The notes beneath the pieces were generated by a model, which worked only from the letters and a program-made list of their open reading frames with translations, searched no databases and was not told the DNA's origin. A stretch of DNA of 62,084 bases, the filler included, from Globobulimina sp. (lineage: Eukaryota): assembly GCA_003354225.1 (NCBI GenBank). It is 19 parts of 19 records of this genome, joined end to end, with 100 filler letters (N's around TTAATTAATTAA, not from the genome) between each part and the next. Parts side by side here need not be neighbours in the genome. Positions count along the whole stretch, not along the records: positions 32,749 to 35,920 come from PIVH01003510.1; 18 more parts are not named here. One strand, 5' to 3'. The translations under genes were made by a program, and so were the position numbers. How positions within the stretch are numbered: position 1 is the first letter of the stretch; the number at the start of each line of letters is the position of its first letter. Below, one piece after another: positions 32,750-45,068 of this stretch.

Positions 32750-35700
32750 GGCAGAGGCAGAGAAAGAGAAAGAGAAAGAGGCAGAGGCAGAGGACGCGGC
32801 AGAGGTAGAGGTAGAGGAAGGGGGAGAGGAAGAGGAAGAGGTCGAGGCAGAGGTGGTTATCGGTCCAATTATGGAGGATATCAACATTCTAATAAAACAG
32901 TTGTACGATTTCACGACGTAGCTGATGAGTCATTGGATCGCGAAGTTTTATTAATGAACAAGGACCATCCAGGTGCTTTGTATACATTTCATAATCAAAA
33001 ACAGAGTGTGGTTATAATTATATTATTTTTTTAGGTGCGCAACAAATTCGAATCTTAAAGTTTGCCAAATCCCAATGGGAGGCCGTTGAATCATTAACAC
33101 GCGGCGATTTTTATTATCATAATCGAATTGAAAAAAAAAATACAAAAAAAAAACCGATAGAGCTGCGGGATTTATCTGCGATAAAAACAGAATATCGACC
33201 ATATAGAGTAGAATACGCGTCGCGGCCATCGGAATATCCAAAGAATTTACCGACCATTGTACTAAAAACAAATTCATTTCAAGTTCGCGGCAAAATATTA
33301 GAAACCGCTGTGAATCAATTTGAAGTATCATTTAATCCGTCCATCAAATCGGAATTAGTAACATTGCGAGAAAAAGTTGTTTTGGGTTCATCATTAAAAG
33401 TAAGACGAAGGAATTTTGAAATATTACGTGATAAATTTGGAGAATTTCAATTTGATAATCACGCCTTATATTCGATGGGAGCAAAGGAGAAATTCAAGAA
33501 AGTAGTATTTGAAAAGGGAGAGCTATCCAAAGATTACGAAATTACATTTCATTGCATTGGCGACTTTCGTTTGAGTGACCCGACCATTCCAATACAACAA
33601 CAAGAGGCCTTATTAAATATTTTTAACCGCAAAAGATTGCAAAATTCCGGTTTTAGTCGGATTGGAAGAGGATGGTTTAAAAAGGGCAACAACCAAAGCG
33701 ATAAACAGCGGGCTTTGCACAACGATCAAAATAAAAATAATAATAATAATATCAAGAATATTAATTGCAAAATGCAAGAAATCTCGGTGATTTCGTCCAA
33801 TTCGTCGTGTCCCGATGTTAATATCATTCATGGTTTTGAGTGTTCGATGCGAATTTTGCCAAAACATGGTGATCGCCAATTGACTGTCTTCAAATCGGAT
33901 TTATCGCATAAATTGGTAGAGCGCCTAACGTTGCACGACAAGATTTTATTAATGAAACAGCAGTCCTCTCAATCGCACGACGACTATAAATTTAAAATTG
34001 ACAGAGAATGCAAAAAGAGACATTTCTTATTGAGTTATAACAAAAGGAATTTACAAATCTCATCCATTGATTGGAAACAAAACGAATTATCGTCATTTAG
34101 TTTAGGAACTGGCGGCAAAATCTCATATAAAGAATATTTATTTCGTCAGTATGGCATAAAATCGTCAAAGAAAGAGCTGTGTGTAGTGCTGGATAAATCC
34201 GGTGCCGTTTTCTTGCCGCAACACATTCGTTTAACAATCACATCGAAACAATCCGATTTAATCTACGATGAGGTCTTAAATTTTGTCAATCCGCGAACTG
34301 ATGAAAGATTAAACCGCATTGAAAACTTTGTGCAACATATTAATTTGCATAATAACAACAGCGATGTAAACGAATTAAACATTAATATGGATTTTGAGAT
34401 TGAAGAGGAATCGTTGAATACGCCCGCAATTGTCTTAAAAATGCCAAATATTATAATTTACGGCGAGAATGGTCCAATGAAAGCGCAGCCAGTCGACGAT
34501 TTTAAATATTTTCAAACTCGCGGTTTTTTAAAAGATGTTCGCAATCTGCAAAATTGGGGCATTGTGTATGAGCATCCACGCTATGAACACGCATTTGATT
34601 CTTTTTATGCTGCATACGAACAATATATAAAAAAACGACATTTTGATCGATATAACGGACCCATATCACCACCAACCTCGCGACCAATCAATATGATGAA
34701 TATATTAAATGTCACAGGCAACCAAAACCAAAACAAAAATCAAAACGCCAATCATGACTTAAATTATTTGATCCATAATAATATAATTCGCAAAAATGAT
34801 GAATTATTAGTGGTCATATTGCCCGATGGTATGCGAGGCAGTGAAATCAAGGCAAAATTCACCAAATTGATCCAATCCGCAAATTTATGCAATAAAAAGA
34901 TTTTGATTCAATGCATACAAAATCAAACGTGCCGTAAATTGAATGCGTGTCTGGGCACTTTTGAAGATATAATGATCAAATTTGGTAATATCCCCTATGT
35001 GATTGACCCGGTATTGCCAATGCATAATGGCGCCGTGAACATCAATACCGAGTTATGCTGGGTATGGGGCATCGATGTGTCGCATGTTCGTGACAAGCCG
35101 TCTGTTGCTTGTTTGTCAATATCACGCAAACCGTTTGAAGGTTCGTTGCGGTCAATGCACTTCTTATGCCATTTGAACCCATCTCGCAAAGAAATCATCG
35201 CCTTTACCAATATGATAACGTTGGCATACCGTGGCTTGGAACAATGTTATCATGCCACCATCAATGAATATGGACAGCATTTACCAATCTCGATTTTTGT
35301 GTTTCGTGATGGCGTCGCTGATGGGCAAATTGAGGAATTATTTACCAAGGAAGTGGTTGGCATACAACGTGCAATTACTATGTTTCGCAGTAAATATAAA
35401 CTGAAGAAATGGAAACCCAAATTGCAATATATATTATGTAATAAAAATACGATCGATAGGTTCGGATTATTGGATCAGAAAACAGGACTCTGCCGCTCCT
35501 TAAATAAGCCGTGTGTCATATATGACCATGTATTATCTGACAGATTATGGGATTTTATTATATTTCCATATCATTATAAAAAGAATGCGGACCGAACAAA
35601 AGGTGTAAGATATATTGTCTTATTCGACGATTTAAAATTAGCAAAGAAATGTGGTGCTGCATTAGATTTATTTCAATTTATATTTTCTTTAACTTATATG

Positions 35701-35898
35701 TTTGCATTCAGTATCCCATTCCCTTTGGGTGGCACAGCGCAGCCCGCTCCTATTGTTTATGCAAAACATTATGCTGAATCCTTCTCACAATCCATTTTGT
35801 CAAACGATAAACAATTAGAGTCACTCAGAATTAATAAAGATTTATATAACAGACCGCATATTATAACACAAACAATATTTCAACAATATCAAGACTAA
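32750..35898 (+). CDS. Divergent PIWI-clade Argonaute (RG repeats, N, PAZ, MID, PIWI; 5' partial)
   Basis: Exon 32750-32972 (RG repeats), intron 32973-33034, exon 33035-35898 in frame. PAZ LLSYNKRNLQISSIDWKQN..ISYKEYLFRQYGI; PIWI WGIDVSH, RKEII, IFVFRDGVADGQ and PAPIVYAKH. Confidence 0.92.
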
Positions 35899-39292: not shown

Positions 39293-42200
39293 TGGATCCG
39301 CAGAAGCGAAAAATGTTAGAACATTGTTATTATGCGATGGAAAGTGCAGGTTATCCCAATGAACGATCGGTCGCTGTAATCACTGGTTGTGCTCCAAACA
39401 AATACAATACTCTGTATGCAAATACCATAGATAGAGAACAGAATCAAATGGAAGCAAATGCATCGAATTATTTGTCAACTCAAATCAGTTATAAACTTGG
39501 ATTGGAAGGTCCTGCAATCGATATAGATACTGCATGTTCCACTGGATTGATAACTGTAATAGAGGCATGTAATCAACTGAGATCATGTCAAATGGCAATA
39601 GCAGGAGCTGTAAGTCTTCCATTACCACAACAACATGGATATTTATATCAATCTGGACTTATATTTGCAAAAGATGGTCATTGTCGGCCATTTGATGCAA
39701 AATCTGATGGAACTCTTCCAGGCGCTGGTGTTTGCGCAATTGTGTTGAAACCTTATGAAACTGCCTTAAGGGATGGTGACAATATTTATGCTGTGATCAA
39801 AGGCACTGGAATAAATAACGATGGCGATGAAAAAGTTAGTTTTACAGCTCCAAGTACTAATGGACAAACTAAATGTATACTTTCTGCTCATGAAAAAGCA
39901 GCAATTGATGTGAATCAATTGGTTTATGTTTAGTGTCATGGCACTGGTACCCCAATTGGTGATCCAATCGAACTTAGTGCCTTGACCAATGCGTTCGATG
40001 CTGCATATAATGTTGAAGATTTGGAAACCCCTATTGTTCTTGGTTCTGTAAAAGCAAACATTGGTCATGCAGACAGAGCTGCAGGCATGGCAGGCCTTAT
40101 TAAAACTGTGATGCTGCTTAATGATAATGTGTTGCCACCTCAGATTAATTTTGATACACCAAATCCCAATCTGCAATCTGGTTGTGAATCAGGGCTGTTT
40201 CAAATACTGAAGACCAGCAGAAAACGCAATTTAAATACTTTACTACCTGCCTGCGCTGGGGTGAGCTCATTTGGTATTGGAGGAACAAATGCACACATAG
40301 TTCTTTCTGGTCATATTTCAAATAGGAATGACAATAATATGGTTCATGCAAAAATGACAACCCAGATCCTGCCATTATCTGCAAAGTCCATCAATTCATG
40401 TATTCAATACACTAAAACACTTGGAAAATTTTTGACCGAGAATGCAGAAATAAGTCTTGCTGATGCAGCATATACCCTTCAACAAAGGCGCAAACATTTC
40501 AATATACGTGCAACCATTGTTTCATGTTCACTCGATGGTGCAGTTGCACAATTACAAGATGATATTCAAATGTATCAGATCAATAATGATGGAGATGTTC
40601 CATTGGTTGTTGTGTGTCCTCCAATCACATGTCTTTATGACAAGATCAATGTAAAACTGTATAACAAATGTGAAACTTTTACTGAAACAATGAATCATTG
40701 CTTTCTTTTGGCTTCTGAAAACTTAGATGTCAACTTAAAGGAATTGATATTAAATGATGATTGGAATGCACCATTAATGAGTTACAACATTCTGAATGAT
40801 GAACTGTATGTGAAAATAGTGATGTTATCAGTCTGTTACAGTATAGGAAAACAGTTACTTCAATGGGGAATAACACCAAATGCCTATATCGGACATGGTA
40901 TTGGTGAATATGTTGTTGCAGCATTGACTGAAGAAATGAGTTTAGCAGATGTTATGAAAACCATTTCTCATTCATCTATCAATGACGCCAAGGTGAATTA
41001 TCAAGATCAACATGATTTGACAAACAGCAAAGTTAATAGTGAACTACAGATCAAAGATAAATTTAAACAAAGCATTCACACTGTTGTGCAAAAAATTGGA
41101 AATCCTGTTTTCATTGAACTTGGAACAAGTGATGCTTTATCATCATTTGTAGATGATTATGCAACAGAGCAAAACTTACAGCTATTTTCATTTAAAACAA
41201 TGTCATCCGATGTGTGCTGCAATACACAGAAAGAGGACATAACTTTGTATGAAACAGTTGGAAAACTTTGGTCTATCGGCTATTCAGTCGATTGGACAAA
41301 ATTAAGTTCATCAAAAAATCTATGCAAATTGCCTAGTTATCAAGTTGAGAAGACCCCTTGTTGGATAGATGATAAGCCGATTGCAGAAAAACTAAATGCA
41401 AGTATCTCAAGAACAGTTGATATTAAAGAAATCGATGAAGAAGAAAGTGCAGAAGATGAAACTGTCTTTACAAAAGTTGATAAAATATTCAAAACGGCGC
41501 TGGGTAATGAACATTTATCAAAATATGACAACTTCTTTGAAGTCGGTGGAAATTCACTCAATGCGTTATGTTTGATTGAAAGTTTGGAGAACTGTTTTCA
41601 TGTCAAAATCGGTCTGGAACAACTTAATATACATAACTCGGTTTATTTGTTGTCAAAATTGATCACAAATTCTGAACAATGTTCAGAAAAGAGTTGTCTT
41701 GTCAACTTGGTACCATTTGATTCAACAAAAGAAACGATATTTTTCATACATCCTGGTGGTGGAACAGTGTTTCTATATCAACCAATGGCAAAACAATTGC
41801 CACAATATTTCAACTACATTGGCATTCAATACCCCGATTTATTAAATGAAGTACCAACAATTAAACTAACTTCTATATCTGATCTTGCTATTCATTACAT
41901 TAAATTAGTCAAAGCAATACAATCGAATGGTCCTTATATATTGATCGGTGCTTCTCTCAGTGGTACAATAGCATATGAAATGGCATATCAATTAGAGAAA
42001 GATGGGGAAGAGGTTCCTTTTATTATAATGATGGATACATGGGCTCAATTGCCAGAGGAATTTCATAATGAACTGAAACTTGAGCAATATTTGATCAAGA
42101 ACATCGATCTGAGTAGACAATTGTTCAATGAACAAAAACTGCCAATAATATCGAAAGAAACAAAGAGTCGAATTTTGGTCTCAGCAATGAGATTGATGAA

Positions 42201-42443
42201 AATACTTCTTAGTTATCAACCAAAGAAAACACAACAAAAAATTTATTTACCCAAGGCAATGGAACTCGATGAAGTATTCAGAGGACAACTCAGCTGTCTT
42301 AAGGGAAATAAGAAGAATTTTGGCAATCTTATACAACAACTTCCGTTACGGTTTTTCCTGTAAATGGTGATCATATAACCATGTTAAAACATGAAAAGAT
42401 TTTGTCATTTTTATTGAAAATATTTAATGAATTATTGGATTAA
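39293..42443 (+). pseudogene. Type I PKS terminal module KS-(degenerate AT)-ACP-TE with in-frame stop and frameshift
   Basis: KS DTACST, CHGTGT and NIGHAD; TAG at 39931 in place of the E of the E.HGTGT motif. AT GHGIGE, ACP FFEVGGNSL, TE HPGGG / GASLSG. The TE GDHITML motif lies in another frame after about 42305. Confidence 0.85.
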
Positions 42444-43624: not shown

Positions 43625-44917
43625 TTAAAAGGGATCACCTGTCGTCAAACTCCGTTGATAATCGGCAAAGAAAGTCGGAGAGATAGCTGCCTTGGCCGCC
43701 GATAGGCTATGCATCAAATCACATTCCGATTGATCAAAGTCGAGGATGTCCCTATTCATCATCGGACCATACAAATAAATAAACGTGAGCCCAATAAGAT
43801 CATTCTGCGAATGAATCAGATAGCGGTATATCGCCGCCAATAACTTCCAACGTCCAGCATACGCAATGAGACTAGTTGGAACACCACATCGCTGCAACGT
43901 GGTGGCAAAGCCCTTGCGCAGACCATGAAATCGATAGCGAGGACCATCGACAAAGCCTAACTCCGCAATCAAAGAGGTCCATTGTCGTTTAACGGCCGCA
44001 AGATTACAGTTTCTATTCGGCGCTTGGAACAGGCAACGGCGACGGAGAGGATAGTCATAAATCGAGCGCAGATGACGTGTCTGCAAATTATACACATGAT
44101 AGAATATCCATACTGGCTCAAGCGGCCGCTGCGTACGGCCAATCCTCAAAAAGACATCAGTGCCAACCCGAGCTGACTTGGAATGCCTTAATCTAATACG
44201 AATATGATGTAAATTATCCCAAGACTTGGAATAACCATTACTTTTATAGGTCCGCATATGAATATTCTGCGTATCAGCGATGTGCGTCTCGTCCTCCATC
44301 CAATAAAAATCTAAGTCACTGGTATAAATGCCATAACCTTCATACTGTTTACAGGCATTCTCATAGCACTCCGCACCACGAAGCCCCAAAATGCTGATAA
44401 AAAGGATAGACACTGCATACAAATACCAGAAAAGCCGAGATTCATCCTTCCAGATAGCAGGAAACGATAACCACTGCGCACGCAGTTTCTTGTCATCATC
44501 GGACAATATCAGGCCATAATAAACTTTAAAGGTGAGAATATACCGCACGATCTGGACGACAATATTGGAGGTAACAGGCAGTGTATCACTCCCTTTGCCT
44601 GGGTTACGCTTCTTGACATAGCGGATGATAGTGGACAGAGTAGGGTTGGTAGACCACGACTGCTGTATACCACATAATTGTGCCACATAATCCAAGGACC
44701 GCATTTTGTTGCGAATGGTGCCATAAACATTCTGCTTCTCCCGAATAAAGCAGCAGTTGATGATATAAATCTGAATAACTGTGTCCATCAACGGGAAAGA
44801 CCATACCAAAACGTCCGGAATCTTAAGGCGCCGCATTGTACGCCAAAACTCCAGAAAATTGTTTAAGTACGTGTTTTCTGAAGACATTTTAATCCCTCCA
44901 CTCAAAGTCGCCAACAA
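43625..44917 (-). CDS. Tyrosine recombinase (DIRS/Ngaro type)
   Basis: Core-binding domain (SENTY..GTIRNKM..LPVT), then catalytic GLRGAE, HSK, FHGLRKGFAT, AGRWK and IYRYL. Confidence 0.92.
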   Translation of the reverse strand: MLATLSGGIKMSSENTYLNNFLEFWRTMRRLKIPDVLVWSFPLMDTVIQIYIINCCFIREKQNVYGTIRNKMRSLDYVAQLCGIQQSWSTNPTLSTIIRYVKKRNPGKGSDTLPVTSNIVVQIVRYILTFKVYYGLILSDDDKKLRAQWLSFPAIWKDESRLFWYLYAVSILFISILGLRGAECYENACKQYEGYGIYTSDLDFYWMEDETHIADTQNIHMRTYKSNGYSKSWDNLHHIRIRLRHSKSARVGTDVFLRIGRTQRPLEPVWIFYHVYNLQTRHLRSIYDYPLRRRCLFQAPNRNCNLAAVKRQWTSLIAELGFVDGPRYRFHGLRKGFATTLQRCGVPTSLIAYAGRWKLLAAIYRYLIHSQNDLIGLTFIYLYGPMMNRDILDFDQSECDLMHSLSAAKAAISPTFFADYQRSLTTGDPF

Positions 44918-45068
44918 GATATCTCGATATATAGGAGATACATATGCCCATAGAGGGCTATTAAACTTCTTGGCACGAACTGTGTAACCACAAAACGAAA
45001 AACGCTGTCAAAACAAAGAAGTGCACTGCAAACCAAAGCAAACCAGTGGCACACAAGTACTGTGGGGG

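Follow-up and report, generated by a model that had tools for sequence, protein, structure and literature searches.

A divergent, probably functional PIWI-type Argonaute gene of the foraminiferan Globobulimina sp. and the conserved family to which it belongs

A Tyr/Lys anchor for the 5'-phosphate of the guide, a buried free C-terminus and a catalytic site that reads DEDH or DEDD are regarded as near-universal in eukaryotic Argonautes. The piRNAs bound by PIWI proteins are 24-31 nucleotides (nt) long and carry 2'-O-methyl 3' ends, (G/A)R(G/A) repeats are symmetric dimethyl-arginine sites that bind Tudor proteins, and slicer-independent nuclear PIWIs of animals act as guide-loaded binders or scaffolds. 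The gene described here occupies positions 32750-35898 (+ strand) of a 62,084-nt stretch of DNA from Globobulimina sp. (GenBank assembly GCA_003354225.1), hereafter the window, and encodes a PIWI-type Argonaute that departs from this picture. Its host belongs to Foraminifera, a major group of marine organisms whose genomes are very large and rich in repeats and whose nuclear cycles are unusual; small-RNA biology in this group is, to our knowledge, essentially unexplored.

In prokaryotic Argonautes, the catalytic tetrad is DEDX, X being D, H or K, and the 5'-end pocket occurs as HK, RK, KR, YY and MID-OH variants, of which the MID-OH group (MpAgo) binds 5'-OH guides (available parts of Ryazansky et al. 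2018, PMC6299218). For Foraminifera, the accessible portion of the literature holds one passing mention of Piwi only, that on Reticulomyxa Argonautes holds nothing on the PIWI family considered here, and no description of foraminiferal PIWI residues was found in the texts available in part, including passages of PMC13547706 and of an Allogromia preprint. For Rhizaria, a Plasmodiophora paper is, in its accessible sections, restricted to AGO-clade proteins.

The locus is a two-exon, intact and spliced PIWI-type Argonaute gene and, taken as a whole, the data indicate that it is probably a functional, transcribed foraminiferal gene of a divergent PIWI subfamily. Among 1.84 billion representative proteins scanned, 374 relatives reached E <=0.001, 50 of them <=1e-30, and the same substitutions are kept in relatives down to 26% identity. 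The unusual residues are established traits of the family, kept by purifying selection: the private decay that a preliminary description of this DNA had named as one finding that would speak against its reading was not observed, the residues of the pocket and the Lys-His (K-H) pair of the fourth catalytic site recurring in dozens of relatives. One conserved family has altered its 5' anchor, its C-terminal end and its fourth catalytic residue all at once, with a WW-like domain added. Its named members are all foraminiferan, namely Reticulomyxa filosa 'Argonaute-2b', Nonionella stella (P0044, P0112) and Elphidium margaritaceum (P0085 cluster), and on this basis the family appears so far to be known from Foraminifera only. 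The features of the gene are given below; residue numbers follow P0001, which corresponds to residues 1-953 of exon 2 with residue 1 at position 33037.

32750-32857, + strand: N-terminal arginine-glycine (RG) repeat region, 14 RG in 36 residues (hand count), truncated at the 5' side
32750-32972, + strand: exon 1 (partial), from translation, its 5' end truncated by the contig start
32973-33034, + strand: intron, 62 nt, GT..AG, phase 1, absent from the preliminary description
33035-35898, + strand: exon 2 with TAA stop, a single open frame of 953 codons closed by TAA TAA
33067-33162, + strand: WW-like domain, residues 11-42 of P0001, absent from the preliminary description
33958-34218, + strand: PAZ domain, residues 308-394 (Pfam PAZ 4.4e-9; matches to PIWI PAZ domains in PDB)
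34831-34875, + strand: first helix of the MID domain, residues 599-613 by DSSP of the model, with G601, S602, K605, T609 and K610
34909-34980, + strand: rest of the 5'-end pocket, with Q625 (34909), D644 (34966) and K648 (34978)
34879-35790, + strand: Piwi domain, Pfam residues 615-918 (4.6e-18)
35074-35076, + strand: catalytic D680 in GIDVSH, aligned to the canonical D
35191-35193, + strand: glutamate finger E719 in SRKEII, aligned to the canonical E
35308-35310, + strand: catalytic D758 in FRDGVADGQ, aligned to the canonical D
35764-35769, + strand: K910 (fourth column of the tetrad, by alignment; seventh helix residue) and conserved H911
35851-35868, + strand: conserved RPHIIT strand, in register with canonical ..LYFL (strand 940-942 in the model)
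35866-35895, + strand: tail TQTIFQQYQD, T944-D953, 10 residues beyond the canonical terminus

The order of domains is an RG/RGG-rich tail, a conserved motif (R/V)(F/W)HD.A..L that forms a short helix, the WW-like domain and N-PAZ-MID-PIWI. The protein had been described as a highly divergent PIWI-clade Argonaute with a PIWI-type PAZ and a GIDV motif, and Pfam, profile scores, structural comparison and tree all agree with this assignment; besides the PAZ matches listed above, GIDVSH is found around D680. In alignment A1, Pfam detected Piwi in 30/30 family members and PAZ in 20/30. The best relatives of solved structure found by sequence belong to the PIWI clade (PIWIL1, 1.2e-11), and a profile of 30 relatives scored PIWIL1 at 5.7e-65 versus ca. 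5e-37 for AGO2. Structure prediction, one of the checks proposed earlier, gave a confident Argonaute fold: the AlphaFold2 model, built from 102 aligned sequences, has a predicted local distance difference test score (pLDDT) of 92.4 and a predicted template modelling score (pTM) of 0.91, and the fold predicted for the entire chain is that of a normal bilobed Argonaute. Foldseek matched this model to full-length hAgo2 (5.9e-44) and Siwi (1.7e-43), as well as to MILI/Hili and EfPiwi, with the highest target-normalised TM-scores (0.72-0.75) all obtained with PIWIs and EfPiwi at the top (0.75).

Phylogeny had also been proposed as a check, and it places the family on the PIWI side. In a 59-protein tree with 8 AGO proteins as the outgroup (quick search, posterior mean site frequency (PMSF) model, support by the Shimodaira-Hasegawa-like approximate likelihood ratio test (SH-aLRT)), the family, with 30 rows, comes out as a single clade (support 100) on a long stem of 0.99 changes per site, nested in a PIWI side of 51 rows (support 100), as expected for the lineage-specific PIWI that had been suggested. 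AGO-clade membership, which the name 'Argonaute-2b' of the R. filosa protein would imply, is unsupported by this tree. The family adjoins a group of four foraminiferal PIWI-like proteins (support 88); this group and its neighbours are foraminiferal, the P0099 cluster being from Elphidium and P0151 and P0116 from Nonionella. The simplest history would be a duplication within the foraminiferal lineage, followed by a burst of change and then by conservation. At the fourth catalytic position an ancestral Asp may have been replaced by Lys, possibly via the Glu seen in some members; as the tree does not fix the position of the root inside the PIWI side, we infer this order of events only tentatively. 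The sister PIWIs P0090, P0099, P0100 and P0151 have Asp rather than His as fourth catalytic residue (DEDD), and P0135 (YANK) and P0116 (YASR) have Asn or Ser at this site.

The gene itself is intact over the part that the contig contains. Exon 1 starts inside a simple (GGCAGA)n repeat, is translated in frame as GRGRERERER(GR)12GG YRSNYGGYQHSNKTVVRFHDVADESLDREVLLMNKDHP, and ends with ...VVRFHDVADESLDREVLLMNKDHP followed by base 1 of a Gly codon; it is 79% identical to residues 40-72 of P0117. The intron is absent from contigs of sequencing runs X1 (depth 116), X6 and X7, in which 32970 is joined exactly to 33033, and is retained in contig 9 of run X2 (32954-34461, no differences). This is most naturally explained if the runs sampled spliced RNA as well as genomic DNA, the RNA nature of X6 and X7 being a guess only; among the runs listed for the contig, none is recorded as RNA. 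The homologues P0003 and P0117 read ...NKDHPGAQQIR... without interruption over the exon junction. A hidden 3' intron giving a longer, P0003-like tail was considered and ruled out, as the last 60 nt before the contig end contain no GT and such an intron is therefore unlikely. In DNA of ca. 34% GC, chance would be very far from producing a frame of 953 codons with such matches. Purifying selection on the gene is evident from its differences to the close variants of runs X6 and X7: of the 40 listed, 35 are synonymous and 5 are conservative replacements (83 more differences fall outside the listing), and 33 of the 40 lie at third codon positions. When compared to P0117, what is missing upstream is a Met and about 40 RG/RGG-rich residues. 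Record 1 of run X1, which is spliced, continues for 272 letters further 5' of 32857, i.e. ca. 165 nt past the contig start; public data thus contain the 5' end that the contig lacks.

At the active site, the catalytic D, E and D had been placed at 35074, 35191 and 35308. These coordinates proved exact, and D680, E719 and D758 fall in the canonical columns of a 52-protein alignment. The fourth site reads YAKH (35758-35769; K910 at 35764, H911 at 35767) in place of YAH and, as first noticed, K stands at the His position with H shifted by one: PAP...YA-K-H-YA aligns over PAP..YA-H-K-LA without an indel, and the PAP..YA and A....Q flanks match. In the models, the helix of this site starts right after a conserved Pro, and K910 and D836 of P0100 are both its seventh residue. 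The DEDH tetrad, which is typical of slicers and on which clade membership does not depend, is thus not found in the window protein, its fourth residue being K910. Across 76 non-canonical proteins the fourth site is K-H in 37, D-H in 8 and various in the rest. The four catalytic columns are covered by 51 family proteins, 23 of which have K-H (17 DEDK, 3 DDDK and 3 with a broken D-E-D), and among the other 28 an intact D-E-D was found in 5 only (4 DEDD, 1 DEDG), all counts being uncorrected for shared ancestry. That the Lys travels with an intact triad would be unexpected if it had killed the enzyme, and suggests an active site that is live or at least constrained. As judged from these residues, the chances that targets are cut by the D680-E719-D758-K910 site are about even.

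The alternative that survives best is a slicer-dead PIWI, in which K910 would abolish metal binding and the protein, loaded with a guide, would serve only as a binder or as a scaffold, bringing in effectors via its RG repeats and WW domain. Such a protein is a real possibility, if not the one that we expect. Lys occupies the column of a metal-ligating Asp or His, and scaffold roles would have precedents within the family, as D680, E719 or D758 is clearly lost in other branches (27/51); the extra protein-binding modules (RG, WW) would also suit it. The retention of the other three catalytic residues in 20/23 K-H proteins versus 5/28 of the others speaks against it, as does the occurrence of K among the fourth residues accepted in prokaryotic Argonautes (PMC6299218, available parts). 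Two sub-branches of the family (P0085/P0092/P0091/P0104 and P0077/P0086/P0102) have lost D680 and/or D758 (e.g. GIKILR, FRGG) and keep S602, K605, Q625 and K648; they are probably paralogues that no longer slice but still bind guides.

The second departure concerns the 5'-end pocket of the MID domain, where the canonical series Tyr-x3-Lys, Gln, Gln, Lys is not found in the window protein: Q625 and K648 are kept, and the PIWI-specific Gln column holds D644. In the register obtained with MAFFT on 52 full-length proteins and with hhalign against the sister group, K605 falls in the Tyr column and T609 in the Lys column, with K610 next to it, and the family and the sister group have in common a [DS]-E-[ILV] prefix ahead of the Tyr column. 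When the models of P0100 and of the window protein are compared, strand beta-1 runs in both up to the conserved Pro, with the helix beginning three residues further on, so that helix positions 7 and 11 are Y551 and K555 in P0100 and K605 and T609 in the window protein. On account of the sister-group comparison and of these matching helix positions, this register was preferred, and alignments and models together make it reasonably likely. Four other registers were ranked below it: Tyr = F608 (HMMER against PIWIL1), canonical Lys = K605 with Tyr in an insert (HMMER against EfPiwi), Tyr = T609 (hhalign against distant canonical PIWIs, low confidence) and Tyr = A606 (hand alignment to P0099). None of the five registers brings a Tyr into the Tyr column, the alternatives giving F, G, A or T. 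The by-eye alignment of KAKFT with the expected Y..IK anchor is supported by MAFFT, by hhalign against the sister group and by the helix positions; HMMER and hhalign against distant PIWIs differ.

The altered pocket recurs throughout the family. Among 154 aligned proteins, 76 cover the Tyr column, with Tyr in 27 (all canonical or sister) and the pair S602+K605 in 47. Of these 47, 35 carry T and 7 carry S at column 609, 21 carry R and 20 carry K at column 610, and G601, Q625 and K648 are found in 42, 44 and 46 proteins, respectively. Column 644 is D in 23/47 and N in 12/47 family proteins, compared with Q in 24/27 canonical ones. A conventional pocket, in which misalignment would account for the apparent remodelling, the canonical Lys would be K605 (GSEIK = YSAVK) or F608 would provide the stacking, and guides would have a 5'-monophosphate, is unlikely on this evidence. 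HMMER does pair K605 with the canonical Lys of EfPiwi and F608 with the Tyr of PIWIL1, and Q625 and K648 are kept; however, MAFFT and the sister-group profile give Y = K605 and K = T609 with a common prefix, Y551 and K605 are both at helix position 7 in the models, the Tyr is supplied by no register, and the loss of the free C-terminus is independent of the alignment of the MID domain.

At the C-terminus, MAFFT and hhalign both align the canonical last residue to I943, and TQTIFQQYQD is therefore a true extension of 10 residues, in line with the ca. 10 residues that had been noted past the usual terminus. The chain does not end at the canonical position, where the free carboxylate lies at the 5' pocket. 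All of the 30 full-length family proteins extend past the canonical end, by 1 to 234 residues, and all of the 21 canonical or sister proteins stop there. The sequence and length of the tail vary within the family and the preceding (N/S)RP(H/Q)(I/V/L).. strand is conserved; in the model, pLDDT drops to 40 at residues 951-953. The longest tail, in P0010, has 233 C-terminal residues of Pro/Gly/Gln/His-rich low complexity and an RGRGRGY end, and that of P0112 is Arg/Ser-rich; as both tails bear Arg, Arg-rich modules are possible at either end of the protein.

At the other end, the RG repeats that had been noticed amount to the 14 dipeptides in 36 residues listed above, and P0117 and P0083 begin with Met followed by RG/RGG-rich stretches. 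Sequencing reads break off at the RG repeat. The WW-like domain that follows keeps W14, G23, Y26 and P40 in the window protein, and its second Trp is replaced by Lys. Of 5 proteins compared with Pfam, 4 (the window protein, P0007, P0006 and P0011) have a WW hit below cut-off at this position (best 1.1e-4); taken alone, Pfam reports WW in 3/30 family members at E <=0.1. A profile of 10 family N-termini matched solely WW domains among the 60 PDB matches listed, with scores of 1e-10 for TCERG1, 2e-10 for PRPF40A and 7e-4 for Pin1, and with Prp40 also matched. In the model, the WW strands are at 14-18, 25-29 and 34-36, with pLDDT >93, and P0011 and P0044 have both Trp and the full W...W..P signature. 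A loose motif search found WW in 11/30 family proteins, many of which have incomplete N-termini, in 0/9 sister-type proteins and in 0/14 canonical PIWIs. The literature on WW/Piwi domain architecture, as far as it was accessible, yielded no WW-PIWI fusion.

These features can be assembled into a tentative mechanism. A small RNA guide would still be loaded, via a rebuilt and more basic 5'-end pocket in which K605/T609/K610/Q625/D644/K648 replaces Y/K/K/Q/Q/K and no free C-terminal carboxylate takes part. Such a pocket would be without the stacking Tyr and would have acquired basic or hydroxyl side chains (K605, T609, K610), with an acidic or amide residue at 644, and could fit a 5' monophosphate or another 5' end. 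Targets would possibly be cut by the D-E-D-K site, and the RG repeats and WW domain would tether partner proteins, possibly Tudor-type methyl-arginine readers and proline-rich or phospho-Ser-Pro ligands as for the WW domains of Prp40/TCERG1. This tethering would suit nuclear or co-transcriptional genome surveillance. In the foraminiferan Allogromia, PIWI is up-regulated during nuclear breakdown ('Zerfall') according to the available part of a preprint (bioRxiv 10.64898/2026.10.21.760831), a report that fits such a role though it does not concern the window protein specifically. The atypical guide 5' ends or altered slicing that the preliminary description had proposed are likewise conjecture. 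The boldest version, i.e. a foraminiferal mode of PIWI action unlike that of any eukaryotic Argonaute studied, with non-monophosphate guides (e.g. triphosphate or hydroxyl), Lys-assisted D-E-D-K cutting, docking of the WW domain on the transcription/splicing machinery, and transposon policing or guidance of the large-scale reorganisation of nuclear DNA in the foraminiferal life cycle, appears improbable. If it is true that guides are loaded and targets cut, the known chemistry of eukaryotic RNA silencing would be widened, and the family would offer natural test cases for the role of each 'invariant' Argonaute residue. Such a family would surprise Argonaute specialists and is directly testable.

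Several points weigh against a functional PIWI with a remodelled pocket and a D-E-D-K site. Lys does not ligate Mg2+ in the way that Asp or His does, so that slicing may be lost, and we know of no eukaryotic DEDK Argonaute that has been tested biochemically; nothing relevant to DEDK Argonautes was found in the accessible part of the literature. The counts that associate K910 with an intact D-E-D include the effect of shared ancestry. For the MID helix the aligners disagree, with five registers obtained, and the evidence drawn from the model consists of pLDDT, pTM, DSSP and Foldseek, which do not extend to side-chain positions around the pocket or at K910/H911. The WW copy of the window reaches 15 bits (E 0.026; Pfam cut-off 26.9) and is without the second Trp.

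The two remaining explanations can be dealt with briefly. That the gene is a decaying or privately mutated copy (pseudogene) of a normal PIWI is suggested by the unusual residues themselves and by nothing else, and is hardly credible in view of the 953-codon open frame, the intron skipped in contigs of three runs, the 35/40 listed differences that are synonymous, the same residues in dozens of relatives down to 26% identity and a very confident model. A chimeric assembly or a contaminant from another organism, which might be suspected in a chain of unrelated short contigs with a contig break inside the RG repeat, is just as implausible: contigs of five runs (X1-X5, two studies) contain 87-94% of the sampled words of the PIWI contig, those of X1 and X2 cover its full length, each main piece having 0-2 differences, the RG repeat at the start excepted, and the homologues are collinear with the window protein over 99% of its length.

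The window consists of 19 contigs of ca. 3.17 kb each, in descending length, with 18 linkers of the form N44-TTAATTAATTAA-N44, and the PIWI gene fills one contig (32749-35920, ca. 3.2 kb). As the contigs are unrelated, the adjacency of genes in the window carries no meaning for the PIWI gene. The window holds 40 open reading frames (ORFs) of at least 200 aa, including the PIWI gene, and no match to reverse transcriptase was found in the 20 longest others (0/20), so that the earlier statement that the genome is rich in retroelements is not borne out by the window. The ORFs tested encode ordinary eukaryotic proteins, such as an amine oxidase, a polyketide synthase fragment, an RNA recognition motif (RRM) protein, a guanylate kinase, mTOR HEAT repeats, a RasGEF, an ammonium transporter and a cytochrome b561. 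The sole hint of a mobile element among these 20 is a 460-aa ORF (43628-45007, - strand) with a tyrosine-recombinase match below threshold (Phage_integrase 23.7 bits, cut-off 27.1), which may be Crypton- or DIRS-like. On a contig of its own, the synthase fragment (39934-42360, + strand) belongs to a type I polyketide or fatty-acid synthase and holds the end of a ketosynthase, a linker, a carrier-protein domain and a thioesterase.

When compared to known systems, the window protein shares with prokaryotic long-A Argonautes a tolerance of residues other than YK at the first two pocket positions and the use of K as fourth residue, yet these belong to an unrelated lineage and offer an analogy of mechanism only, and the combination K/T is not mentioned in the parts of the survey that were available (PMC6299218). 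The N-terminal module of its family resembles the WW domains of Prp40/PRPF40A, TCERG1 (CA150) and Pin1 by profile match (1e-10 to 7e-4) and by the pattern W...G..YY.N..T....P; it is fused here to a PIWI protein, and the copy of the window protein has Lys for the second Trp. With animal PIWIs (MIWI/PIWIL1, MILI/Hili, Siwi, Drosophila Piwi and sponge EfPiwi), it has in common the N-PAZ-MID-PIWI fold (Foldseek E ca. 1e-43 to 1e-39), the N-terminal RG repeats, the D/E/D of the tetrad, a pocket Gln and the last pocket Lys. It differs from them by an identity of 15-18% only in structural alignments, by Lys for His as fourth residue, by K605/T609 and by D644 at the Gln column; in addition, animal PIWIs end exactly at ..L(Y/F)(Y/F)L whereas the window protein is 10 residues longer and has the WW-like domain added.

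The canonical-looking foraminiferal PIWIs (P0090, P0099, P0100, P0135, P0151 and P0116) are closer, as they form the nearest branch, come from the same host group and share the register of the pocket and active-site helices as well as the [DS]-E-[ILV] prefix. Unlike the window protein, they have their own Y..(V/L)K, the pocket Gln, a canonical ..(H/Y)(F/Y)L end and, apart from P0135 and P0116, Asp as fourth residue (YADK), and the WW-like motif was found in 0/9 of this type. The closest named protein is the R. filosa 'Argonaute-2b' (P0005), with 54% identity over 68% of the query; its entry is without the N-terminal third and has a different tail, but it carries the same motifs at the three altered sites, GSEVKARFTK in the pocket helix, YAKHYAE at the fourth catalytic position and NRPHVVT before the C-terminal extension.

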